Shown piece after piece: positions 23,577 through 57,908 of a stretch of DNA of 64,000 bases (position 1 is its first letter; each line of letters begins with the position of its first letter). The DNA is from Peptococcaceae bacterium UBA4068 (GTDB taxonomy: Bacteria > Bacillota > Dehalobacteriia > UBA4068). A model generated the notes under the pieces. It was given only the letters and a program-made list of their open reading frames with translations. It was not told where the DNA came from and did not search any database. Made by a program: the position numbers and the translations under genes. Where the stretch lies: assembly GCA_002382665.1 (NCBI GenBank), contig DFZA01000006.1, positions 66,950 to 130,949 of the forward strand. Direction: 5' to 3'.

Positions 23577-24578
23577 TTACTCAACAAAGTTTACAGGCGT
23601 ATTGATTTTGAGCGGCTGGCTGATATCATAACCGCCCGGCAGCGTTTCAATTTTCTCTCCTTCAACCAAAATCTGTACTGAATCTACCGTATCAATAGAA
23701 GTACCAGTATAATAAATACAATTTACCAGCATTACTTCATTGGCTGAGCCGCTGTTATAGTTAAGTAAATCATCTGAGAAATTTAGTATTGCCACACCGT
23801 CATTTACAGTTACTCCTAACAGCTTGGTTGACGCAGGCAGCGGAGAATGGAGGATACCGCTCGACGATTGATCGGCAATTAACGCTTCGATAGCTTTCTT
23901 AACCAATATAACCGGAGTATTTTCTTTTTCGGTCAATTCGCTGTTGGCAACCATGATAGTCTGCGGTACCAGATACATTGCTTGACTATCGCTCAAATAA
24001 TATACTAACGGCATGCTATTCTCCTGGTTACCGGAAGTTACAACATTAACCAATGGTAATCCCAAGGGCTGTGATATATCAACATCGCCGATATTATCAC
24101 AAATAGAACCGTTAACCAGTATATGCAGTGTATAGCCATCAGTCAGAGGCAATACCGTTAAGAGTATAGAGTCAATAGCCAGTTGCGCCCGGTCCGCCGG
24201 TATATCTGTAATTTCATCAGTCAGATCAACATAAACAACTGAACCGCTGCTGTATAAATCAAGCAATTTAGTGCCTTCGGGAATCGAATCGGCAGCAAAA
24301 CTATCGGGCGATCCGGTTATCAGCTTTTCCATGGCTACTTTAGCGACTTCCTTGGTAGCATTGATCGGCAGATTTAGCGGCAGCAAAAATTTGCCATCCA
24401 ATGTAGTATAATATACGGTTGCTGTTGTTGCCTCTTTTTCTTCGGTCAGCGGAACCCTTTGGTCAGAAACCTGCTCACTGTTCTGCTCATCAGCACAAGC
24501 CATGGGGATTAAAGCAATCACCAACAATAATATTAAAAGGTAAATAACCGGTAAATTCTTCTTGTAAACCTTCTTCAT
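23577..24578 (-). CDS. GerM-like lipoprotein with two GerMN domains
   Basis: Signal peptide plus Cys, two repeated about 130-aa GerMN-like modules. Confidence 0.55.
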   Translation of the reverse strand: MKKVYKKNLPVIYLLILLLVIALIPMACADEQNSEQVSDQRVPLTEEKEATTATVYYTTLDGKFLLPLNLPINATKEVAKVAMEKLITGSPDSFAADSIPEGTKLLDLYSSGSVVYVDLTDEITDIPADRAQLAIDSILLTVLPLTDGYTLHILVNGSICDNIGDVDISQPLGLPLVNVVTSGNQENSMPLVYYLSDSQAMYLVPQTIMVANSELTEKENTPVILVKKAIEALIADQSSSGILHSPLPASTKLLGVTVNDGVAILNFSDDLLNYNSGSANEVMLVNCIYYTGTSIDTVDSVQILVEGEKIETLPGGYDISQPLKINTPVNFVE

Positions 24579-45115: not shown

Positions 45116-46900
45116 TTATTTGTCAGGCTTTAATTTATATATTGGCCAACTTCTAAATATATCTTGATCTGAAGGATCAAGCTTTTCAAAGTACATATGA
45201 TAATCAAAAACATTATCTAATAAAATACTTATTGAACATAATGCAAGAACATCTTCATCTGAGTTAAGTTTTGCTTTTTTGTCATTTAATTGTATTTTTT
45301 CTTCCTTAGATAATGGAGTTTGTCTTTTTTTAATTTGCATTGTATTTATTAGATTAATAGTACTATCTATAGAATAATTGTCTAAATAATTTTGAATTTT
45401 TTCAGCTAATATTAAGAGTTTCCCACGTGTAGTATCTTTATCATATGCTATTAATATCTGAATAAGAAATTCAGTTAATAAGCTAAATGTTTGTTCATTT
45501 AATTCCATAGAAATAATTGAATCATAAATAACGTCACATTTAATGTTCGAAAATCTTAAAATATCCTCAGATTTCAGCTGTATATATGGACTAACTATAG
45601 CTTCTTCTCCATTTGTAAATTTCGCAATTACCATTAAATCATCATTTTTTTCAAAATAATTAAGTATTTCAAAAGCACCGTTATCTTTGGGTATTACTAA
45701 TAGAGCAATACTAAGAGGCCCTATCATTATACAAGTTATACCTACTTGCAACTGTATCCCATTAGGAATTATTATCTTATTAAGGGAATTAATTAACCAT
45801 GTCAAATTATTAGAATTTGGCTTTATGAGATCATCAAAGTTTTTATCATAATTAATCCCTAAATTATTAAGTATATTTTCTGCCATAGTATAATTTGATA
45901 GTAATTCTTCTAATTCTTCTAAACCTTTATTGTCACGAAAATCTATATTAGTAACATTAGAATATAAAGGAGTTTCATCTATTTCTATTATCTTTTTACT
46001 AAAAACAGCAATTAAAAACCTAATATCTTTTATTCTTTCTTTCAAACTTCCTATTATCTTATAATCTACCTTTATTTCCTTTCCATTAATTTTAAGTAAC
46101 TCAATTGCTTGTCCAACTTGTATTTTTTCATTATCTTTATTTTTGGCAACTCTGTAACTTGAATAATACTCAATTCCTTCAACATTAACATTCCTAGAAA
46201 TTTCTTTTACTATTTCATTAATTTGTATCGTTCTATTAAAAGGAACAAATGGACTTTCTGGATTTAGTTTCCCATATAAATAATTTTCGTCATCAAAAAC
46301 ATTAATAATTGAGCCCATTTCATAAGACGTTACCCCTATTTCAATTTTATTGACTTTTTCAATATCTTTGAAGTCAATATAAATATCATTTTTTTGCATT
46401 TCCATATTTTTATATGTATCTGCACATATATATGTAAATGATGAAGATTTATTTTCTGGAACATATTTCAAGCAAATGTTTATTTGCTTTTGATTTTCGT
46501 TTAGTTTTCCTATTAGTTTTTTTATATCTACAGGTAAAAGTCTTTTATAGTATAATCTACATAAACTAATACTTTTCTCATCAATTTCTACAACAAAAAA
46601 AATAACACCAATTTTTAATGTATATTTTTTTAAATCTGTAACATTCAACGGATATGATCTAGTATTATCACTAAATTTTTTAACAAGCTTCCCTTTTACT
46701 TGAACCGGAATGCAACCAGTCAAATGATCTTTTTTCTGCTCGCCATTGTTGAATATTTCAATTTCGCCATCCCAAATAATGTCTCTTTCACTCTTTTTTA
46801 TATTGGCGTGTAATAACGAACATGAATTAATAGCAGTACAAACTGTTTGAACTGCTGCTTCTTCTATTTTAGTACTCGGTATTGACATTATAATTACCAC
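45116..46900 (-). CDS. Large AT-rich orphan protein (594 aa) with DUF4365-like N-terminal domain
   Basis: Long ORF with strongly AT-biased codons. N-terminal D-x-GEIEI...VQVKGK pattern, reminiscent of DUF4365, a PD-(D/E)xK-like domain family. No Walker or TM motifs. Confidence 0.5.
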   Translation of the reverse strand: MVIIMSIPSTKIEEAAVQTVCTAINSCSLLHANIKKSERDIIWDGEIEIFNNGEQKKDHLTGCIPVQVKGKLVKKFSDNTRSYPLNVTDLKKYTLKIGVIFFVVEIDEKSISLCRLYYKRLLPVDIKKLIGKLNENQKQINICLKYVPENKSSSFTYICADTYKNMEMQKNDIYIDFKDIEKVNKIEIGVTSYEMGSIINVFDDENYLYGKLNPESPFVPFNRTIQINEIVKEISRNVNVEGIEYYSSYRVAKNKDNEKIQVGQAIELLKINGKEIKVDYKIIGSLKERIKDIRFLIAVFSKKIIEIDETPLYSNVTNIDFRDNKGLEELEELLSNYTMAENILNNLGINYDKNFDDLIKPNSNNLTWLINSLNKIIIPNGIQLQVGITCIMIGPLSIALLVIPKDNGAFEILNYFEKNDDLMVIAKFTNGEEAIVSPYIQLKSEDILRFSNIKCDVIYDSIISMELNEQTFSLLTEFLIQILIAYDKDTTRGKLLILAEKIQNYLDNYSIDSTINLINTMQIKKRQTPLSKEEKIQLNDKKAKLNSDEDVLALCSISILLDNVFDYHMYFEKLDPSDQDIFRSWPIYKLKPDK

Positions 46901-47098: not shown

Positions 47099-47617
47099 CT
47101 ACATACATTCATATGGATTGATTATCACCACATCCAACCCCTGTTTCCTTGCGTAATAGATAGTTTGGGCGGTGCCGCCGCTGGATGACAGATCGTGAAC
47201 AGCAATCAGACGCGACGAACTGTCTATCATTTTTTGGTTACGCCGCTGCATACAGCCGGTCGTATAATTCATCTGCAAACAAATTACCTCATCGGCTTTA
47301 GTCAGTATATTTATGTATTCTTCGCGCCAGTCTACCAACCATCTATCCGCCTGCGTTTCGCAAGGCAGATAACAAATCAGCCGGATATCAGGAAATTTCT
47401 CTTTCAGCTTTAAAATAATCTCCGCCGCCCAGATGTCCACACCCATGGCCATACCGGTTTGAAACGTCGTAAATCCTAGAAAGATACTTTTACGTATTTC
47501 ATATTCCAATTTGTTTAAGAGCAAAGCCAAATTTAATTCCATTGGCAATTTATGCGGACGCAAGCCACTGATCGTACATACTTTATCTTTTCCTGACATT
47601 TTATCTCCTTTTATCAT
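47099..47617 (-). CDS. SLOG-superfamily YpsA/DUF1273-family protein
   Basis: GMAMGVDIWAAE (cf. YpsA GxxLGvElWAAE) and the C-terminal SGGT motif of the DprA/LOG-like Rossmann fold. Confidence 0.7.
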   Translation of the reverse strand: MIKGDKMSGKDKVCTISGLRPHKLPMELNLALLLNKLEYEIRKSIFLGFTTFQTGMAMGVDIWAAEIILKLKEKFPDIRLICYLPCETQADRWLVDWREEYINILTKADEVICLQMNYTTGCMQRRNQKMIDSSSRLIAVHDLSSSGGTAQTIYYARKQGLDVVIINPYECM

Positions 47618-49257: not shown

Positions 49258-49427
49258 GGTATCAGTGCCACTCGGTCAAAGCTATTTTGAAGAGCGATAC
49301 CCCAAATATAGTACAATAGAGCATGAATTTATAATAAGAATTGTTTTAGGAGTGGTTCTTATGAAAAATTGCATTGTAATAATGGGATAGTCAGCAAATT
49401 AACATCATACAAAGGAGAGTGTTAAAC

Positions 49428-50060
49428 ATGACTATTCCCAATAAAAATAAACTATACCCAAGAAGCAACGATCACCAAACCATATATCTTAAAAACGCAA
49501 TTACCAGAGATAACATAATAGTCGGAGATTACACAATATATAACGATTTTTATAATGACCTGCGGGACTTTGAAAAAAACAATGTCTTGTATCAGTATCC
49601 GCTGAACAATGATAAATTAATAATCGGTAAGTTTTGTTCGATCGCCTGTAAAGCGAAGTTTCTCATGACAAGCGGCAATCACACGCTCAAATCACTATCT
49701 ACTTACCCATTCCCTATCTTTTATGAGCAATGGGGGTTGGACGTTGGCCAAATCACAGACGCCTGGGATAATAAAGGAGATATTATAGTCGGCAACGATG
49801 TCTGGATAGGTTATGACGCTATTATTATGCCAGGCGTGAAAATTGGTGATGGCGCAATTATCGGCGCCAGAGCAGTCGTTACCCAAAACGTCCCTCCTTA
49901 CTCTATTGTCGGAGGCGTTCCCGCAAAAGTCATAAAGAATAGGTTTAGTGATGATATAATTTCAAAGTTATTGGAGATCAAGTGGTGGGATTGGCCGGAC
50001 GAAAAAATCCGGGCCAATATTCAACACCTCCAATCAGGAAATATTGCTGAATTAGTTTGA
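49428..50060 (+). CDS. vat: Xenobiotic acetyltransferase (XAT) hexapeptide family, Vat-like streptogramin A O-acetyltransferase
   Basis: [50 protein letters not shown] and KWWDWP align closely with Vat(D)-type enzymes (more so than with CatB). Confidence 0.75.
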
Positions 50061-50110: not shown

Positions 50111-50145
50111 AAAAAGATGCCGGTTTTAATAACCGGCATCTTTTA
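50111..50145. terminator. Bidirectional terminator (aagatgccggtt / aaccggcatctt) between vat and GT gene
   Basis: 12-bp perfect stem with flanking A and T runs. Confidence 0.7.
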
Positions 50146-51237
50146 AACTTCGTTTTCATTGGACTCTGAATTAACACTTTTAAAATAAAATTTATTATAC
50201 AGTACAGCCGGATGGTTTGGTTTATACTCGGCTGCCTTGTTATTATGCTTAATAGCTTGTTCTATGTTACCGATCCTGTCGTAACAGAAACATAGCTGCA
50301 TGTTGGGAATGTAATCCCAAAAATCATGCAGAATAAATCCCCAGTTATCAACAGGCTTTTTCAACTGGGTAGCCAGATTATACCAAAATATAGCTTTATC
50401 AAAGTCAGCCTTTTCTAAATAGTAGCTTCCCAGTTGACAACAGATTTCCGCTCGAGGCGTATCATATTCGAAGCTTTGCAATAATATTTTCAGTTTGCTT
50501 TTATTATTATTTAGATAACCATAGCATATTGAAAGATAAAAACAGGAACTGATATTATCTTCTGCCCATCCTTTTTCAGTATCTAAAAACTTATTGAAAT
50601 ATATGATCGCGTCATCGTACTTTTGATTGTAATACAGCTCTTTCGCATAATAGCAAAGCCCCCTTACGCTCAATTCTTTTCCTTTTGACAATAACTTTTC
50701 ATAGATTGATATGTTTCTGCCGCTTGGTGTTTGATGTTCTTTTTTATGAGTTATACATATATCTGAGTTAATAATATATCCTCCGGTTTGTATATACTCA
50801 TGGATAGGTTCCAACCATTTGTAGTTATTTGCCCTCTTAACCAAACGTTCTCTGTAATATGATAAAGTAATATTGCCGTTTTCATCAAAACCGGCATTAT
50901 ATTTCATCATCACCATATCAACATTATCATTTAAATCTTGTTTTAGCTGCTTTAATTTGATTCTGTCTTCTTCCAGGATAACATCGTCCGCGTCCAACCA
51001 AAGAATATAATCCTTTGTCGCTTGGGAAAATGAGTAATTTCTCGCGGCTGAAAAATCGTCAATCCATTCGAAATCATATAGTTTATCAGTATATTCTTTA
51101 ACAATATTCTTTGTGTTATCTGTAGATCCGGTATCCACAATAATTATTTCATCAGCAATATCCTTAACACATTCCAGGCACCTTGATAAAACGTCTTCTT
51201 CATCCTTCACAATCATACAAAGACTAATTGTTATCAT
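50143..51237 (-). CDS. GT2 (GT-A fold) glycosyltransferase with C-terminal TPR-like helical domain
   Basis: IVKDEEDVL...IIIVDTGSTDNT...WLDADDV (DxD) N-terminal domain. C-terminal TPR-like repeats. Architecture shared with spore-coat/exosporium and SunS-type glycosyltransferases. Confidence 0.7.
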   Translation of the reverse strand: MITISLCMIVKDEEDVLSRCLECVKDIADEIIIVDTGSTDNTKNIVKEYTDKLYDFEWIDDFSAARNYSFSQATKDYILWLDADDVILEEDRIKLKQLKQDLNDNVDMVMMKYNAGFDENGNITLSYYRERLVKRANNYKWLEPIHEYIQTGGYIINSDICITHKKEHQTPSGRNISIYEKLLSKGKELSVRGLCYYAKELYYNQKYDDAIIYFNKFLDTEKGWAEDNISSCFYLSICYGYLNNNKSKLKILLQSFEYDTPRAEICCQLGSYYLEKADFDKAIFWYNLATQLKKPVDNWGFILHDFWDYIPNMQLCFCYDRIGNIEQAIKHNNKAAEYKPNHPAVLYNKFYFKSVNSESNENEV

Positions 51238-51356
51238 TTAACACCTCCGTTTATGCCGATCCCTTTATTAAAAGAGGGAAATATAAAATGTCCCCCTCTT
51301 TCAATAAATATTAAAGTAGATTATTTGCTATATCTTACTAATTGAGGTATTTGTTA

Positions 51357-52064
51357 TTATGTAATACGTAGTAATATCGTAGCTGCCGCGCCATTCTCTA
51401 AGGCAGCGGAAGTGGTGCTACGGGTAACTTTTACAGATAACAAATCACATCGATTAACAGTAAAATTTGCACTTGTAAATGCACAACAAGTTGGCGGATT
51501 TGGCCCTGTTACCACTGCTTTAATGCCTGTTGCTACAGGAGTAACCCCACAATTTGTGCTTCGATATATCTCACCAGTGATGGTTTCGCCTGTATCTAAA
51601 GGTTCGTCTCGAATACTAAAGACTAAACCTGTAATGGTTGAGGTTTGCGGGACGACAACAGTATTGCGCGGAAAACTTGATGACGAAATACCTAGTCCCA
51701 TAAAATCATTATTGCCAATAGATGTATCCGAACCTAAATAAATAGTACTTGCTCCAGGTCCCGTTGCGCCCGTTGCCCCAGTAGCACCTGTAGCGCCCGT
51801 TGCTCCTGTTGCGCCGGTAGGTATGGTTATACAGATACACTCGCAGCATTCACAACATTTCGGACAGCGACAAGGTTCAGTTTCACAGCATGAGTGGTCT
51901 TTATGACAATGACGATTGTTATCTTCACGACAATGGCAATCTTCATCTTCACAACAGAAAAACTCTAAACAATGTTGACAAAAACATAATTTAATATTTC
52001 GGTGTTTTTTTTCTATTTGATGATCCTGAAAATAGTCAGTCTCACCAAAGGTCCTTTTAGGCAT
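51357..52064 (-). CDS. Collagen-like (GAT)n repeat protein with Cys/His-rich N-terminal domain and BclA-C-terminal-like domain (putative spore-surface glycoprotein)
   Basis: 19 Cys in residues 27-79. (GAT)6-GPGAS triple-helix-type repeat encoded by a perfect 9-bp DNA repeat. About 125-aa β-rich C-terminal domain. Confidence 0.6.
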   Translation of the reverse strand: MPKRTFGETDYFQDHQIEKKHRNIKLCFCQHCLEFFCCEDEDCHCREDNNRHCHKDHSCCETEPCRCPKCCECCECICITIPTGATGATGATGATGATGATGPGASTIYLGSDTSIGNNDFMGLGISSSSFPRNTVVVPQTSTITGLVFSIRDEPLDTGETITGEIYRSTNCGVTPVATGIKAVVTGPNPPTCCAFTSANFTVNRCDLLSVKVTRSTTSAALENGAAATILLRIT

Positions 52065-52473
52065 TTTTCAATCCTCCCTACATAGTGTTATAGCCTGACT
52101 AACCTATAACATTATATGAGGAGTATAATAGCATAGTTCCATTACCAAGCCCTTAATTAATTGCTTATAAAGAGAGAGCCGATTATTGATTCAATAATTG
52201 GGGCGTGTTCTGTTTTATGTGTTTTAATGCCCTAGTGGTTATAATAAAAGCAAGGAATGCCCTCAAGGCTCGGATATTTCGGGTTTGAGGGCATTTTTAT
52301 TTAAGTAACTAATTGACTTTGTGTACTGTAGCGGAAGAAAATATAAAATTGCGCAGAATTACGATGTGTCCGTTCAATACTTTTTCCCACTGGTTTGTTG
52401 TCGAATTATCCCGCTTATTCTATCAGCAGCAAATGCGATTATACGGTATTCCGCACCTCCCCTTCTCAACTAT

Positions 52474-52507
52474 AAAACCCTCTGTATGGTATACAGAGGG
52501 TTTTATA
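52474..52507. terminator. Perfect palindromic terminator (aaaaccctctgtat-gg-atacagagggtttt) 3' of the GGDEF/HD-GYP gene
   Basis: 14-bp perfect stem, 2-nt loop, U-runs on both strands. Confidence 0.75.
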
Positions 52508-52559
52508 GTTGATTTTACTTCTACGTTTACTAAATACAATCTATTGTTTATGATTTACA

Positions 52560-54245
52560 TCAAACAACTTTTGAATTTTTTCCTAAATTATTTGGATTTT
52601 GTAATAGATTTATAAAAGTATCCACTATTTTAGGATCAAATTGGGAGTTACTGCAGCGTTTAAGTTCTTCAATGGCTTCTCCAAATGATCTTCCTGTCTT
52701 ATATGGTCTATCCGTTGTCATGGCATCAAAACAATCTACTACAGTTAATATTCTGGCAAGATAAGGTATATCATCTCCCGAAAGACCATCGGGATAGCCG
52801 TTACCGTCATATCTCTCGTGATGATGTTTAATAAGGGGTATAACATCACTAATAGATTCTACAGGCCCGATTATTTCAGCACCTTTTACCGGATGCTGTT
52901 TTAGTATTTCCCATTCCTCCGACTCCAGAGTAATATCTTTATTAAGTATTGTCTTAGGAATATCAATTTTGCCAATATCGTGCAGATATGCGGCATATAT
53001 AAGCTTTTTCTTTTCGTCCTCAGCCAAATTTAACTCTTCGGCCATCATTTGACAATTCATAACTACTCTTTCCGTATGAGCGTATGTATATCTGTCTTTC
53101 ACATTAATAACCATTATCAAGGTTTTTATTGATGTGATCAATTTCGTATCTTCATCTTCAACATTGCTTTTTAGTTCGTCAAAAATAGATGTATAGGTTT
53201 CTACCCGATTTCTGTTAAAGATTTTGGCTCTATATAAAGCATCGTCGGCATTCTTTACCAACTGATCTGCAGATTTTACTCTTTCAGGAAATGACGAGAC
53301 CCCGATTGATATAGTTAGGTTACCATTGGGCTGCAGTTGCTGATTTTCAAAGTAGGTTTGTTCGATCTTTTGCCGGATTCGTTCTCCGATTTTTACCGCG
53401 TAATCTTCGCCCGTTTCCGGCAGTATGATAACAAACTCCTCCCCGCCATATCGCACAGCCACATCATCTTTTCTGGTTTGCTCTTTCAAAATATCGGCTA
53501 TAGTCTTTAATACTTGATCTCCTTTTTGGTGTCCGTTAAGATCATTATAATTCTTAAAATAATCAATATCTAAAAAAATCAAGGATAGGGGTTGCTTGTT
53601 TTCTACAGCCTGTTCAGTTTTTAATTTTAACATTTTACTGAAATATCTATGATTGTATAAACCGGTAAGATTATCAGTATTGATACCGTATTCCAGTTGC
53701 TCTATATATTGATCATTTACCTTAACAAAGTATCCCAGCGTCCAGGAAACCAAGAAAAATATCCCTATCAGGACCAAATCGTCTTCAAAATAAGGATTTA
53801 TACTTTGATGGGTATAAGTCAATATGTCCAAGGATACTATAACAACAGATGAAGCTAGAGATATCAGTAATCCATTCCTCATGCCCATCTGAATGGTAGA
53901 AGATATAATAACAAGCAAAAACAGAAATTTATATATACTTTCGGCCGCTCCGGAAATATAAATTACAAAAGTGAAAAGTAAAACAAAAAATAGATTTTCC
54001 CCCAGCAAGAACCATCTGTTTTTAACAAACTTTGCACTTTTATTTTCCCATAGATCCCAGAGGAAATAAGTGCAAAGCAGAACAATACACCCAACAGCCC
54101 CTGTAATTAATAGAGTGGTTTGGTAGGGATCATTTTCGGTGTTAATAATTTTATACTTATAAATAATAAAACCAGCAAAGAGTAAAAAACATAATTTTAT
54201 AATAGAAAGTATATTGTTTATCTCTTTTTTATTATCATTATCCAT
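52560..54245 (-). CDS. Membrane-anchored bifunctional c-di-GMP protein: N-terminal about 6-TM sensor-like domain, then GGDEF, then HD-GYP
   Basis: RYGGEEF (intact GGEEF). HD...HHERYDGNGYP (intact HD-GYP). About 175-aa N-terminal polytopic region. Confidence 0.8.
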   Translation of the reverse strand: MDNDNKKEINNILSIIKLCFLLFAGFIIYKYKIINTENDPYQTTLLITGAVGCIVLLCTYFLWDLWENKSAKFVKNRWFLLGENLFFVLLFTFVIYISGAAESIYKFLFLLVIISSTIQMGMRNGLLISLASSVVIVSLDILTYTHQSINPYFEDDLVLIGIFFLVSWTLGYFVKVNDQYIEQLEYGINTDNLTGLYNHRYFSKMLKLKTEQAVENKQPLSLIFLDIDYFKNYNDLNGHQKGDQVLKTIADILKEQTRKDDVAVRYGGEEFVIILPETGEDYAVKIGERIRQKIEQTYFENQQLQPNGNLTISIGVSSFPERVKSADQLVKNADDALYRAKIFNRNRVETYTSIFDELKSNVEDEDTKLITSIKTLIMVINVKDRYTYAHTERVVMNCQMMAEELNLAEDEKKKLIYAAYLHDIGKIDIPKTILNKDITLESEEWEILKQHPVKGAEIIGPVESISDVIPLIKHHHERYDGNGYPDGLSGDDIPYLARILTVVDCFDAMTTDRPYKTGRSFGEAIEELKRCSNSQFDPKIVDTFINLLQNPNNLGKNSKVV

Positions 54246-54326
54246 ATAGTTTATTAAACTCCGTAACCTGCCTACTATATAAGACCGGCCAATTTGGTCG
54301 GTCTTATATAGTATTTTTTTGTTATT

Positions 54327-54449
54327 TTAGTCTCTAAGGCATTTGGGTTCTTCCGGTTGATAGGCTGCAAACAGGCATGCTGAACTAGCAAATACGGAAG
54401 CGAGCAGTGTTGCTAAAACAGAAGTGAGTACCAACAGTTTGAATTTCAT
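54327..54449 (-). CDS. agrD: AgrD-like autoinducing-peptide precursor (40 aa; not in supplied ORF track)
   Basis: Hand translation gives MKFKLLVLTSVLATLLASVFASSACLFAAYQPEEPKCLRD. AGGAGG SD 8 nt upstream. Sits 26 nt downstream of agrB. Amphipathic leader, central Cys, and a charged tail with P-x-x-P-K, as in S. aureus AgrD ...CDFIMDEVEVPKEL. Confidence 0.6.
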   Translation of the reverse strand: MKFKLLVLTSVLATLLASVFASSACLFAAYQPEEPKCLRD

Positions 54450-54475
54450 TTGATTCACCTCCTTCTAACTTAAAT

Positions 54476-55108
54476 TTAATTATGGAGATCCATCATTGCG
54501 AATAAGCGACCTCCTGAGTGCGTTAAAGTTAGGGTCTGCCAGACCGTGCCAAAGAGTATACAAGCGGCATAGCGGATCAAATGTCCGTTATCTCCGGCAA
54601 AACTATGCAAAGATAGCAAGACGACTATGACCAATAGATATATTCCTAAAATTACCAAAGAGCCGTTCCGCAACCGTTTTCTTTTTCGTGCATTTGTGAT
54701 CGGTTTTTTAATACTGTCCACCGGGGCTTTGGTCAGTACTTCGTAAAACGCCCAGGCGAATGCTGCAATCCCCAAAATGATAACCCATATAACGTTTACG
54801 GGAATATGAGTGATAACAATAGCCGGAACAACAGAGATCACGGTACCTATAACAAGACACTTTCCGGGGGTAGCGGCATGAGCCCCGCCGGAATACTTCC
54901 GCAAAATAGCGATAGTAAAACAGATAACCAATGCTTGTCCAAGCACATGGAATAATAAACTAAAAAGGATAACCAGCAGTATAGATGCTAATATCTGGGA
55001 AAAACAAAAGATACCGTAGGCCATTACTGCTTTTTTATCCTCATCCATATGTAGCGAATAGGCAATATTGGCAGCAATCTTTTCCGCAATCGTCTCCAAA
55101 CTAAACAT
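54476..55108 (-). CDS. agrB: Accessory gene regulator protein B (AgrD-processing membrane peptidase)
   Basis: LRKYSGGAHAAT (AgrB R-x-x-SGG-HA catalytic region). Polytopic. K/R-rich cytoplasmic loop. 210 aa. Confidence 0.8.
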   Translation of the reverse strand: MFSLETIAEKIAANIAYSLHMDEDKKAVMAYGIFCFSQILASILLVILFSLLFHVLGQALVICFTIAILRKYSGGAHAATPGKCLVIGTVISVVPAIVITHIPVNVIWVIILGIAAFAWAFYEVLTKAPVDSIKKPITNARKRKRLRNGSLVILGIYLLVIVVLLSLHSFAGDNGHLIRYAACILFGTVWQTLTLTHSGGRLFAMMDLHN

Positions 55109-55571
55109 TTTTTTCTCTTTTCCTGATTACCAGCAAATAATATAAGAAAATTGTTATTATTGCTAAAGAGATCAAAGAGGGCAAGCTATATAGAGTTTTG
55201 ACATAAACATCCGTATACATCTTTGTTAAATCTAGATGAAGTATGTACTGTATAAATAACATGTTAATCAATTCACAAACGTATAACAATATTAAAGTAA
55301 TAATGCTGGAGCGGATACTGACCGTCAAATTGATCTTATTGATAAAATAAGAAATCCCAATAAGAACAATAACATTAATGATGGTGTGGATACCGTAACT
55401 GATTGGCAGCTCTCTTATAGCAAAAACTAAAACCGCATATAATAGGCTTGATAATATATATCTTTTTACGTCTACTTTTTGTTTGGAAAGAGCATATACC
55501 AAAAGTAAAGTAAAAAATTCTTCCGGTATTACACGAGCGAAAAATTCAAACCAAGTAAGATGAAGCAACAA
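55101..55571 (-). CDS. Small polytopic membrane protein, translationally coupled to agrB
   Basis: 156 aa, 4-5 TM. Its stop overlaps the agrB start by 8 nt. Confidence 0.4.
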   Translation of the reverse strand: MLLHLTWFEFFARVIPEEFFTLLLVYALSKQKVDVKRYILSSLLYAVLVFAIRELPISYGIHTIINVIVLIGISYFINKINLTVSIRSSIITLILLYVCELINMLFIQYILHLDLTKMYTDVYVKTLYSLPSLISLAIITIFLYYLLVIRKREKNV

Positions 55572-55581
55572 AATTCCTCCT

Positions 55582-56130
55582 TTATGCCATTTTTTGATCC
55601 TGATTTAGGTATTTTACGGTATTATAAATTATAATAATCACAAATAACCTGATAAAGATATCGCCGATACTAAGAACCGAATAACCAATATCAAAAATAT
55701 CTGTCAAAAAAGGCAGATGAGTCGATGCATTGCCCCAAATATGTAATGTATCATTGGCGGGAAATGGTTGATTAAGCACATAACCGGTCATTAATGTATT
55801 AGACGGAAACACAGGCATTTTGCCTCCGTTTGCCCAAATTGCGATTTGATTACAAATACTGCCAACAACGATGCAGGCTACTGCAAATAACGAGCTTTTA
55901 TAAAGCTTGCACTTAATAATTAATAAAAGATAGGAAGATAAATATACAGCCTTTAAGATTTGCACATATTTTATCAGGCTATAATCATGCATAAAAAAGT
56001 TAATTTGAAATACCAGATAAATAATTTCAAAACCAAGTATTACATAAAATTGCCATATGGTAAAAATTTTTTTTATTTGATAACCTTTTAATTTAGCAAT
56101 AATCAATGCTAAAACAATCGATTCAGGCAT
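55582..56130 (-). CDS. Conserved polytopic membrane protein (ANGGKMPV / SIGDI motifs), first gene of the agr-like operon
   Basis: 182 aa, 5-6 TM. Motifs IWANGGKMPVFP and DIGYSVLSIGDIF. Function unknown. Confidence 0.4.
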   Translation of the reverse strand: MPESIVLALIIAKLKGYQIKKIFTIWQFYVILGFEIIYLVFQINFFMHDYSLIKYVQILKAVYLSSYLLLIIKCKLYKSSLFAVACIVVGSICNQIAIWANGGKMPVFPSNTLMTGYVLNQPFPANDTLHIWGNASTHLPFLTDIFDIGYSVLSIGDIFIRLFVIIIIYNTVKYLNQDQKMA

Positions 56131-56486: not shown

Positions 56487-57908
56487 GTGGTTTTTATGTT
56501 TACTCATGTTGTCAAAGCGGGCGAAACGCTAACGCAAATAGCAACCTTTTATCATGTACCGATGACGCCGATCATCACTGCCAACGGGCTGGTTGACCCC
56601 GATGTGCTGGTCGTCGGAGAAGCGCTGGTCATCCCCACCGAAGACGTCATCTATATCGTCAAGCCTGGCGATACATTGACCAAAATCGCGCAAAATTACG
56701 GCGTGTCCGTCCAGTACATATTGCAAAACAACAGCATTGCCAATCCTAACAACATTTATCCCGGCCAGGCAATCTATATCCCAGCGAAACAACATCGCGT
56801 AGTACGGGGAGATACGCTGTGGGCGATTTCGCGGCGCTACAGGGTTACACTTCAGAGCCTGATACAAGTAAATAACATTACCAATCCGAACATTATCAGC
56901 CCGGGCACAGTGCTTGTTATCCCGCATAAAAACAGACCGGAAAAAAGCGTCAATGGGTATATTTATTTTCTCGGACAGTCTGCCGTGCCGATCGTCAGCG
57001 AGAATGGCGGATATCTGACCTATCTCAGTCCGTTTGCCTACATGATCAAGGAGGATGCGAGCCTGCAGCCAATCGACGACGTACCCGCTATTCAAACCGC
57101 CCAGGCCGAAGGAGCCATCCCGATGATGTCCATTACTAATTTTACCGTGGGCTTCAGAGGCGAGAATCTGGCTTCGGTCGTATTAAACAGTCCTGCGCTG
57201 ATCGATCAGCTTCTGACGAACATTATTAGCATCATGCAGCAAAAAGGATATAGGGGTTTAAATGTTGACTTTGAGAATGTGCTGCCAAAAGATCGCGAGG
57301 CTTATAACAGTTTTTTGCACCAAGCCGCCACACGGATGCACGCCAACGGCTATTTTTTGTCCACCGCCCTTGCACCAAAGACCGGTCCGACGCAGGCTGG
57401 ACTCTTGTACGAAGCGCATGATTATCCGGCACACGGCAGGATTGCCGATTTTGTGATTTTGATGACCTATGAATGGGGTTTCCGCAAAGGCCCGCCGCAG
57501 GCAATTTCACCGCTCGACAAAATTCGGGAAGTACTTGATTACGCCGTTACGGTCATCCCGAGAAATAAAATCTATTTTGGTTTTCAGATTTATGCGCGTG
57601 ACTGGACCATCCCCTTTTATCAAGGAGAGGAAGCCACGACGATTAGCCCTCAGGAGGCTGTGACGCGGGCTGCTAGGTTTGGCGCGGTGATTCAGTACGA
57701 CTACATCGCAGAGGCTCCCTTTTTTGTGTACACAGATGATACAGGACAGGCGCACGAAGTGTGGTTTGAAGATGCGCGCAGCGCACAGGCCAAGTTAAAC
57801 ACCATTAGGGATTATAATTTGGGTGGCATCAGTTACTGGGCGCTGGGTTATCCTTTCCCGCAAAACTGGGTTCTCCTCGAAGATAATTTCATGGTAAGGA
57901 AATTATAA
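56487..57908 (+). CDS. Spore cortex-fragment-lytic enzyme-like protein: 3 LysM domains + GH18 (YaaH/SleL-like)
   Basis: Three LysM repeats (VKAGETLTQIA.., VKPGDTLTKIA.., VRGDTLWAIS..) followed by a GH18 TIM-barrel with the DFE catalytic-type motif. An alternative ATG start exists at 56496. Confidence 0.75.
   Translation: MVFMFTHVVKAGETLTQIATFYHVPMTPIITANGLVDPDVLVVGEALVIPTEDVIYIVKPGDTLTKIAQNYGVSVQYILQNNSIANPNNIYPGQAIYIPAKQHRVVRGDTLWAISRRYRVTLQSLIQVNNITNPNIISPGTVLVIPHKNRPEKSVNGYIYFLGQSAVPIVSENGGYLTYLSPFAYMIKEDASLQPIDDVPAIQTAQAEGAIPMMSITNFTVGFRGENLASVVLNSPALIDQLLTNIISIMQQKGYRGLNVDFENVLPKDREAYNSFLHQAATRMHANGYFLSTALAPKTGPTQAGLLYEAHDYPAHGRIADFVILMTYEWGFRKGPPQAISPLDKIREVLDYAVTVIPRNKIYFGFQIYARDWTIPFYQGEEATTISPQEAVTRAARFGAVIQYDYIAEAPFFVYTDDTGQAHEVWFEDARSAQAKLNTIRDYNLGGISYWALGYPFPQNWVLLEDNFMVRKL

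Follow-up and report, generated by a model that had tools for sequence, protein, structure and literature searches.

A predicted spore-surface glycoprotein unit of the BclA3/SgtA kind in a Peptococcaceae bacterium: a short collagen-like protein with a Cys/His-rich N-terminal module and its adjoining glycosyltransferase

A 64-kb stretch of DNA from Peptococcaceae bacterium UBA4068 (contig DFZA01000006.1; referred to as the window) carries two adjacent genes on the minus strand, which encode a 235-amino-acid (aa) collagen-like protein (51357-52064, including the stop codon) and a 364-aa SgtA-like protein O-glycosyltransferase (GT; 50143-51237). All coordinates are positions in the window. We consider it probable (about 0.62) that the two genes form a unit expressed during sporulation and that its product is a collagen-like protein, trimeric and glycosylated, on the outside of the spore (exosporium or outermost layer); its plan would be that of the BclA3/SgtA pair of Clostridioides difficile. 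We infer the spore location, the glycosylation, and the anchoring role of the collagen-like protein from the comparisons described below. An earlier note on this DNA, made from the sequence alone, had proposed a glycosylated spore-surface filament protein. That proposal is supported with corrections of detail, and each part of it that could be tested computationally was borne out; the proposed filament would be a stub of ~6 nm. Both open reading frames (ORFs) are real, and the three parts described in the earlier note (a Cys/His-rich N-terminus, a (GAT)6 run, and a β-rich C-terminal domain) are present.

The enzyme is a full-length relative of SgtA

The GT gene encodes a GT2/GT-A domain (Pfam PF00535, E = 1.4e-22) followed by about four tetratricopeptide repeats (TPRs; aa ~199-355). 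Matches to TPR_2, TPR_8, and TPR_1 fall at aa 263-293 and 315-342, and consensus-TPR chains in the Protein Data Bank (PDB) align to aa 199-293. A DADD (DxD) motif at 50983-50994 on the minus strand (aa 82-85, D82-A83-D84-D85) is invariant in 16 homologues. The alignment of the window enzyme with C. difficile SgtA spans 352 aa without a gap, at 57% identity and 75% positives (E = 5e-152). Judged by sequence, homology to SgtA extends over the full length of the enzyme, in which the DxD motif is intact and TPRs are present. The C. difficile locus used for this comparison (L106) was recovered by a search with the N-terminus of BclA3, and SgtA is the 358-aa GT2 and TPR gene product encoded immediately upstream of bclA3.

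In published work, the gene just upstream of bclA3 in C. difficile encodes SgtA, whose 358 aa comprise a GT-A domain and four TPRs. SgtA transfers β-O-linked N-acetylglucosamine (GlcNAc) from uridine diphosphate (UDP)-GlcNAc onto Thr of GxT collagen-repeat peptides, for example VGPTGATGATGADGV; GATGATGA forms part of the peptides that it glycosylated in vitro (PMC7157674). By analogy, GlcNAc transfer onto collagen-repeat Thr is the predicted activity of the window enzyme. The closest solved relative is the GT domain of Listeria GmaR (E = 1.1e-29), which transfers GlcNAc (PMC9638930), and SunS follows (E = 1e-14). Membership of the GmaR family was rejected, as the GT domain alone matches (aa 4-157) and the 364-aa protein stops after the TPRs. 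More than 7,900 homologues of the enzyme were found. The best 120 are 63-74% identical over their full length, and the named sources among these 120 are nearly all Clostridium and related Clostridia, with the closest named Clostridium spp. at ~70% identity.

In the orthologous locus L024 (3847-5961), the enzyme reaches 704 aa: its GT2 domain and TPRs are fused to additional TPR-like repeats and a domain resembling class-I methyltransferases. The window enzyme ends at 364 aa before a terminator. Methyltransferase genes also adjoin the GT gene in two further loci (L004 and L023). A methyltransferase fused to or adjoining the enzyme hints at methylated sugars in some relatives.

The enzyme accompanies collagen repeats regardless of their head domain

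We collected loci of enzyme homologues (80 metagenomic and 7 genomic; 84 after de-duplication) and scanned every frame for G-X-Y runs. The two genes of the window are separated by 119 nt. A collagen-like ORF was found no more than 450 nt from the GT gene in 55 of the 84 loci; of the 53 loci that extend at least 1.5 kb to either side, 39 have one. The earlier note had likened the enzyme to the dedicated glycosyltransferases beside bclA-type genes, and both the identity to SgtA and this neighborhood (65-74% of family loci) agree with it. The density of collagen-like ORFs was 0.82 per kb near the GT gene and 0.065 per kb beyond 1.5 kb. All four relative orientations of the two genes were found.

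The C-terminal domains of the partners fall into a BclA_C-like class (38), a Cys-rich class (21), a BclA3-like class of ~170 aa (7), an 'ALNIISF' class (5), and the class of the window protein (2), and profile-profile comparison among these five classes detected no relationship. Since the partners carry at least five unrelated classes of C-terminal domain, the conserved partner of the enzyme is, at the level of sequence, the GxT collagen repeat itself, which fits an enzyme that recognizes the repeat. The C-terminal domain of the window protein gives the complementary result: it was found in 15 genomic loci, and a GT gene was also present in L004 alone. Therefore, the pairing tracks the GT and the collagen repeat and not this C-terminal domain. 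Locus L024 retains the pair, with an 89% identical enzyme and an 85% identical collagen-like protein, and the exact 235-aa protein is present on 6 metagenome contigs. In L004, a collagen-like gene with the C-terminal domain of the window protein is divergent from a gene for a 48%-identical enzyme.

The protein encoded in L004 (3339-8384) has 1,681 aa, with ~1,500 residues of uninterrupted GxT triplets before the shared C-terminal domain; if triple-helical, it would form an appendage-scale fibre of ~430 nm. In another group of 21 loci (L062-L102), the collagen-like ORF lies 15-50 nt downstream of the GT homologue and appears to be co-transcribed with it. The C-terminal domain of these proteins, ~145 aa long, is Cys-rich (for example, LINCSAMFSASCQRMRAEELICWQCEHAAGKC...) and matched no Pfam family. 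The association of SgtA-like enzymes with collagen-like genes in many Clostridia, whatever the head domain, suggests that O-GlcNAc on GxT repeats is general on clostridial spore surfaces. In C. difficile, glycans of this kind are antigens specific to the spore (PMC7157674).

A short collagen-like run is followed by a predicted jelly-roll domain

The 235-aa protein had zero family matches in Pfam and NCBIfam. Its collagen-like run, (GAT)6-GPG (51753-51815, minus strand; aa 84-104), consists of seven G-X-Y triplets and is the sole such run (at least five G-X-Y) in the 64-kb window. The run has no match to Pfam Collagen (PF01391) because seven triplets are too short; homologues do match PF01391 where the window protein has its run. 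The (GAT)6 segment (aa 84-101) is encoded at 51762-51815 by six units, GGCGCAACA, GGAGCAACG, GGCGCTACA, GGTGCTACT, GGGGCAACG, and GGCGCAACG, which differ synonymously (76% matches in Tandem Repeats Finder). The repeat is thus perfect in the protein, as the earlier note had claimed, but not in the DNA, for which an exact 9-bp repeat had been claimed, and its position is ~23 nt away from the 51785-51838 given there. Length variation, which had been thought likely, is confirmed by comparison with the L024 orthologue, which carries 13 G-x-T triplets (12 GAT and 1 GVT) at the equivalent place where the window protein has 6 GAT. The six Thr residues in the Y position are candidate sites for O-GlcNAc.

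The C-terminal domain (51360-51761, minus strand; aa 102-235, 134 aa) was modeled using AlphaFold2 with an alignment of 53 sequences. The model is all-beta, with ten strands, a mean predicted local distance difference test score (pLDDT) of 95.7, and a predicted template modeling (TM) score of 0.90. Nearly all of the top 50 Foldseek matches in the PDB are jelly rolls of the TNF/C1q family (probability 1.0, E of ~1e-4, TM scores of 0.44-0.57), including APRIL, C1QL1-3, 4-1BBL, TL1A, cerebellin (Cbln1), and adiponectin. The structure prediction that the earlier note had asked for therefore returned the expected kind of fold. Membership of the BclA family is a different matter. Pfam BclA_C (PF18573) did not match the domain at E = 0.1, while other collagen-like proteins found here reach E = 1e-8; hhalign gave a probability of 0.1% against a BclA_C-like profile; and a PDB profile search reached BclA (1WCK) through the collagen segment only. 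On these grounds and on the predicted model, the domain is like BclA in fold class and architecture and unlike it in sequence family, so that of the comparison to a BclA/C1q trimerization domain made in the earlier note, the fold stands and the BclA_C relationship does not.

Database searches returned 56 homologues. Their alignments cover only the collagen run and the last ~134 aa, and the N-terminus is aligned in none. The named sources are all endospore-forming Firmicutes: Clostridium beijerinckii, the Bacillus cereus group, Lysinibacillus, Sporosarcina, Paenibacillus, Peribacillus, Sporomusa, Sedimentibacter, Tepidibacillus, and Halanaerobiales. A plasmid collection gave one match to the domain, in a hypothetical protein of Bacillus mycoides. 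The domain represents an uncurated family, for which a TNF/C1q-like fold is predicted and which is widespread among spore formers.

The N-terminal module is rare, portable, and has smaller counterparts

Upstream of the collagen run lies a Cys/His-rich segment (51816-52064, minus strand; aa 1-83). It contains 18 of the 22 Cys of the protein, one fewer than the 19 counted in the earlier note, and 7 His. The Cys residues are spaced as CxC, CxxC, and CC, among many acidic residues. Nothing credible was found for this segment in Pfam (E up to 10) or in a PDB sequence search. An exhaustive phmmer search of 1.84 billion cluster representatives returned one relative (P0177, E = 5e-6), and a word-based search added another (P0054). 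In the alignment of these two proteins with the window protein and its L024 orthologue, the Cys pattern CC...SC(C)E..PC(R/C)CPKC..CCxCICIxxP is invariant and stops exactly where the first Gly triplet begins. Among the four proteins, the C-terminal domain is of three kinds: the window type, BclA_C, and a third type. Because the Cys pattern is invariant across these three, the aligned sequences argue that the segment is a real portable module and not mere low complexity.

The contig of P0054 also carries a convergent methyltransferase + GT4-like gene. P0177 (L105, 1155-1934) is followed by a YetF_N/DUF421 gene and has AC-N17-CATATTAT in its upstream region; the YetF/DUF421 family is linked to spore membranes.

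Smaller Cys clusters at the same position provide a precedent. Many members of the wider family have a shorter run of Cys next to the start of their collagen region (for example, CCKCCKCPQG, CYCCCCCRCGPG, and CCCIIKCKGP), and in BclA3 of C. difficile a cluster of 6 Cys and 2 His immediately precedes the collagen region (...CNNGRDDYNSCDCHHCCPPSC|VGPT). The pairwise similarity between the window module and the BclA3 N-terminus is marginal (E = 0.007). The window module is an expanded, rare form of a recurring design; thus, the novel anchor domain of the earlier note is indeed rare, but has a precedent in the BclA3 cluster.

We tentatively suggest, as a possibility short of an even chance, that this module (core CxCPKC..CCxCICIxxP) is a portable covalent anchoring cassette that plugs collagen-like fibres into a Cys-rich clostridial spore envelope lattice by means of a cooperative disulfide or metal-thiolate knot. 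The suggestion draws on the presence of the module on three C-terminal domains, on the Cys cluster at the corresponding place in BclA3, and on the finding that N-terminal domains anchor C. difficile BclA proteins to the spore (PMC13288923). Cooperative disulfide cross-linking is regarded as the mode of action of Cys-rich spore envelope proteins in Clostridia and Bacilli (bioRxiv 10.64898/2026.09.03.749163). Both ExsF/BxpB and the Bacillus leader motif are missing from Clostridia (PMC4942563). If true, the cassette would be the missing clostridial counterpart of the docking of the Bacillus exosporium leader to ExsF, shuffled onto at least three unrelated head domains. For the attachment of collagen-like fibres to clostridial spores, a Cys module at the position of the BclA3 cluster offers a concrete, mutable candidate.

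Expression signals suggest one sporulation-linked transcription unit

A ribosome-binding site, GGGAGG, can be read 8 nt before the ATG of the collagen-like gene (52073-52078, minus strand). Promoters used by the mother-cell factor sigma-K follow the pattern AC-N16/17-CATA---T(A). Located 73 nt upstream of the ATG, at 52111-52137 on the minus strand, is a sigma-K-like motif, ACTATGCTATTATACTCCTCATATAAT (AC-N17-CATATAAT), assigned by consensus match only. The motif lies inside a block that is conserved with L024, while the more distal upstream sequence has diverged. Of 26 non-redundant GT-linked collagen-like genes, 9 have the AC-N17-CATATAAT pattern in the 150 nt before them, compared with 0.57 ± 0.76 in shuffled sequences (maximum of 4 in 500 shuffles). 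A sigma-K-like motif is also found upstream of C. difficile sgtA and bclA3, genes that are reported to be controlled by sigma-E/sigma-K (bioRxiv 10.1101/2021.06.21.449304; PMC13288923). No sigma-70-like site was found on the coding strand upstream of the collagen-like gene.

The gap between the two genes contains a hairpin (51264-51308, minus strand; 18 bp, followed by UUUUAAUAAA) with a predicted free energy of -19.7 kcal/mol (z = -4.8), which is identical in L024 save one loop base. As only ~25 nt separate it from the GT start codon, there is no room at that place for a separate GT promoter. The hairpin is probably a leaky terminator or an mRNA-stabilizing element. A strong intrinsic terminator (50112-50144, minus strand; a 14-bp stem and a T-run) overlaps the GT stop codon and marks the end of the two-gene unit. 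This arrangement suggests that the pair is one transcription unit with attenuated read-through, in which the structural protein would be made in excess over the enzyme.

Two further hairpins lie on the other side of the collagen-like gene. A perfect 20-bp inverted repeat is found just after the stop codon of the neighboring GGDEF gene (52466-52512), between that gene and the collagen-like gene, and a second hairpin, at ~52255-52292 (GCCCTCAA...TTGAGGGC), is followed by a T-rich stretch. These two hairpins probably insulate the collagen-like gene from upstream transcription.

A model for the pair and the evidence that weighs on it

The link of the pair to the spore is suggested by several observations: the named homologues all come from endospore formers, the sigma-K-like motif is conserved, enriched, and shared with C. 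difficile sgtA and bclA3, no sigma-70-like site was found upstream, and the 235-aa protein has no hydrophobic signal-like segment (highest 15-aa hydropathy of 1.26). Guided by the literature on SgtA/BclA3, BclA, and spore appendages, we propose that the unit would be transcribed in the mother cell from a sigma-K-type promoter, with the hairpin between the genes lowering read-through so that the structural protein exceeds the enzyme. The TPRs of the enzyme would bind the unfolded G-A-T repeat, and GlcNAc would be moved from UDP-GlcNAc onto the six Y-position Thr residues, where it may also help to stabilize a short, proline-poor triple helix. The C-terminal domain would trimerize and nucleate the helix, giving a stalk of ~6 nm (21 residues at ~0.28 nm per residue; calibration from PMC12357932) with the head facing outward. 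The 18-Cys N-terminal module, with no signal peptide, would be the inward-facing end that staples the three chains together, and would be cross-linked by disulfides, possibly with metal ions, to the Cys-rich spore envelope lattice.

Several points weigh against this model. The C-terminal domain is not a member of BclA_C in Pfam, and BclA (1WCK) is absent from its 50 best Foldseek matches. The sigma-K-like motif includes a perfect TATAAT, so the assignment to sigma-K is made at the level of the consensus, and among the 26 reverse-complement controls, 3 contained the same pattern. Among the loci of GT homologues, roughly a quarter to a third have no adjoining collagen-like gene, and these partnerless enzymes lie mostly within sugar-nucleotide/glycan biosynthesis clusters. 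A stable triple helix may need more than seven proline-poor triplets, and the run could instead be a flexible linker. Helix formation by this run and the anchoring role of the N-terminal module, drawn from analogy, are the weakest links. In the full-length single-chain AlphaFold2 model, aa 1-80 have no fold (pLDDT <50). No SgtA-like gene was found on the short contigs of P0054 and P0177. The expression, location, and glycan of the collagen-like protein are predictions.

Two alternatives keep the glycoprotein on the spore and assign its N-terminus a different task, and we regard each as unlikely. The Cys-rich N-terminus might dock into a disulfide-linked spore appendage or parasporal layer, making the protein a tip or decoration in the way that L-BclA of Bacillus paranthracis sits on L-ENA fibres. 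A covalent link between the N-terminal CC motif of L-BclA and the Cys-rich Ena3A ring has been proposed (PMC11362473), the N-terminal modules of spore collagen-like proteins determine their attachment (PMC12357932), and the window module is both rare and portable; however, no Ena-type or other appendage gene was seen beside the pair in either the window or L024, and a 6-nm stalk is short for a tip fibrillum. Alternatively, the module might mainly bind metal in the manner of a metallothionein (Zn, Cu, or Fe), loading the spore surface with metal or folding around ions, and not act as a disulfide cross-linker. Its 18 Cys and 7 His, the spacings and acidic residues described above, its invariant Cys positions, and synthesis in the reducing cytoplasm of an anaerobe would suit such a function. 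Against it, the Pfam and PDB searches showed no likeness to any metal-binding family or solved structure, and Cys-rich spore envelope proteins are thought to act through cooperative disulfides (bioRxiv 10.64898/2026.09.03.749163). Metal binding and disulfide cross-linking are not mutually exclusive.

The remaining alternatives remove the pair from the spore. Collagen-like proteins occur on the vegetative surfaces of other Firmicutes, which is the argument for a cell-surface or secreted adhesin of the Scl type, glycosylated by the neighboring enzyme. We rejected this explanation as very improbable: the protein has neither a signal peptide nor, in Pfam and NCBIfam scans, a cell-wall anchor or binding domain, its named homologues are confined to endospore formers, no sigma-70-like promoter was found upstream, and the characterized homologue of the enzyme, SgtA, acts on a spore protein. 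The earlier note had also offered a SunS-type S-glycosyltransferase, which in a glycocin-type system would modify cysteines of the Cys-rich segment. Although NCBIfam ranks SunS (TIGR04195) first for the enzyme, solved structures of SunS are matched at E = 1e-14, and the substrate is Cys-rich, the score of 54.3 bits is far below the curated cut-off of 350, and the enzyme is far closer to SgtA and to GmaR. In addition, many partners of this GT family have zero Cys in their N-termini, and no genes for a C39-peptidase ABC exporter or a thiol-disulfide oxidoreductase are nearby. This alternative was likewise rejected, as an extremely improbable one. Finally, collagen-like repeats occur in phage fibres, and one Foldseek match of the C-terminal domain is a phage spike knob, so a stalk with a C1q-like knob could belong to a prophage tail-fibre or receptor-binding protein. 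A tblastn search of 50,697 phage records with the C-terminal domain returned zero matches, and the neighbors of the pair are chromosomal housekeeping and signaling genes with no phage genes seen among them; we gave this last possibility almost no weight and rejected it.

Genomic surroundings of the pair

The neighbors of the pair include genes for a GGDEF/HD-GYP protein, an agrBD pair, a Vat-like acetyltransferase, pyruvate kinase, and a SleL/YaaH-like protein. The sporulation genes that the earlier note had reported are present in the window: GerM (23577-24578), with two Germane domains, is 27 kb from the pair, and the SleL/YaaH-like protein (56487-57908) has three LysM domains and a GH18 domain.

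The agr-type quorum-sensing pair (54327-55108, minus strand) consists of AgrB (54476-55108; PF04647, E = 1.5e-38) and an AgrD-like 40-aa prepeptide (54327-54449, minus strand; MKFKLLVLTSVLATLLASVFASSACLFAAYQPEEPKCLRD). Directly downstream of it, at 52560-54245, is the gene for the membrane protein with GGDEF and HD-GYP (HD_5) domains. In L024 (1339-2961), the SleL/YaaH-like gene is directly upstream of the collagen-like gene, whereas in the window ~4.4 kb lies between them, with genes for a DUF5317 protein and a membrane protein, agrBD, and the GGDEF/HD-GYP gene intervening (52560-56130). This difference reflects either an insertion in the window or a deletion in L024.

On the other side, a gene resembling Vat-family streptogramin A O-acetyltransferases (49419-50060, plus strand; NF000311, 246 bits, below the cut-off of 300) is convergent with the GT gene and occupies the same place in L024. 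Beyond it, a 594-aa protein without a Pfam match (45116-46900, minus strand) adjoins a YpsA/SLOG-family protein (47099-47617, minus strand; PF06908).

Comparison with known systems

Some likenesses are shared with more distant systems. Listeria GmaR and Bacillus subtilis SunS have a GT domain homologous to that of the window enzyme, followed by helical repeats that bind the protein substrate. SunS makes S-linkages and is separated from the window enzyme by the family cut-off; GmaR differs in its 637-aa length and its extra linker and anti-repressor domains, and acts on flagellin (PMC9638930).

The L-BclA and F-BclA tip fibrillae of Bacillus endospore appendages share the collagen-like stalk and C1q-like head, and in them, too, an N-terminal peptide sets the docking. 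A disulfide between a CC motif and the Cys-rich partner has been proposed there (PMC11362473). By contrast, no Ena genes lie near the pair, the Cys module of the window protein is much larger, and its stalk is much shorter.

BclA of Bacillus anthracis/cereus (the exosporium nap; 1WCK; PF18573) has the same succession of N-terminal, collagen-like, and C-terminal parts. Thr residues in its collagen region are O-glycosylated, a further likeness to the proposed window protein. The TNF/C1q-like jelly roll of its C-terminal domain (PMC12357932) is of the fold class predicted here. It differs in that the window protein has no BclA_C match and the glycosylation enzymes are others. The Bacillus exosporium-leader motif (the ExsF/BxpB-docked class) gave no NCBIfam match in the window protein at E up to 1, and the N-terminus is instead the Cys-rich module.

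The closest known system is BclA3/SgtA. In both, the genes are adjacent on one strand, the enzyme combines GT2 with TPRs (358 aa there and 364 aa here, aligned without gaps), and a sigma-K-like motif lies upstream. Both structural proteins have a short N-terminal domain ending in a Cys/His cluster, GxT repeats that include GAT, and a globular, β-rich C-terminal domain. The gene order is reversed, however, since the window has the structural gene first and a conserved hairpin before the enzyme gene. The collagen-like region has 7 triplets in the window protein compared with roughly 70 or more in BclA3, the N-terminal domain has 18 Cys compared with 6 and is only marginally similar in sequence, and the C-terminal domains belong to different families, that of BclA3 being the ~170-aa class. 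In the C. difficile sequence recovered here (CP134690.1; L106, 5001-7065), bclA3 is split into ORFs of 77 aa and 428 aa by frame shifts inside the collagen repeats, which is either a real pseudogene or a repeat assembly error. Taken together, the pair is a variant of the known BclA3/SgtA system and not a new kind of system; it is set apart by a head domain of another family, a rare, enlarged Cys/His module, a stalk of minimal length, and the reversed gene order.

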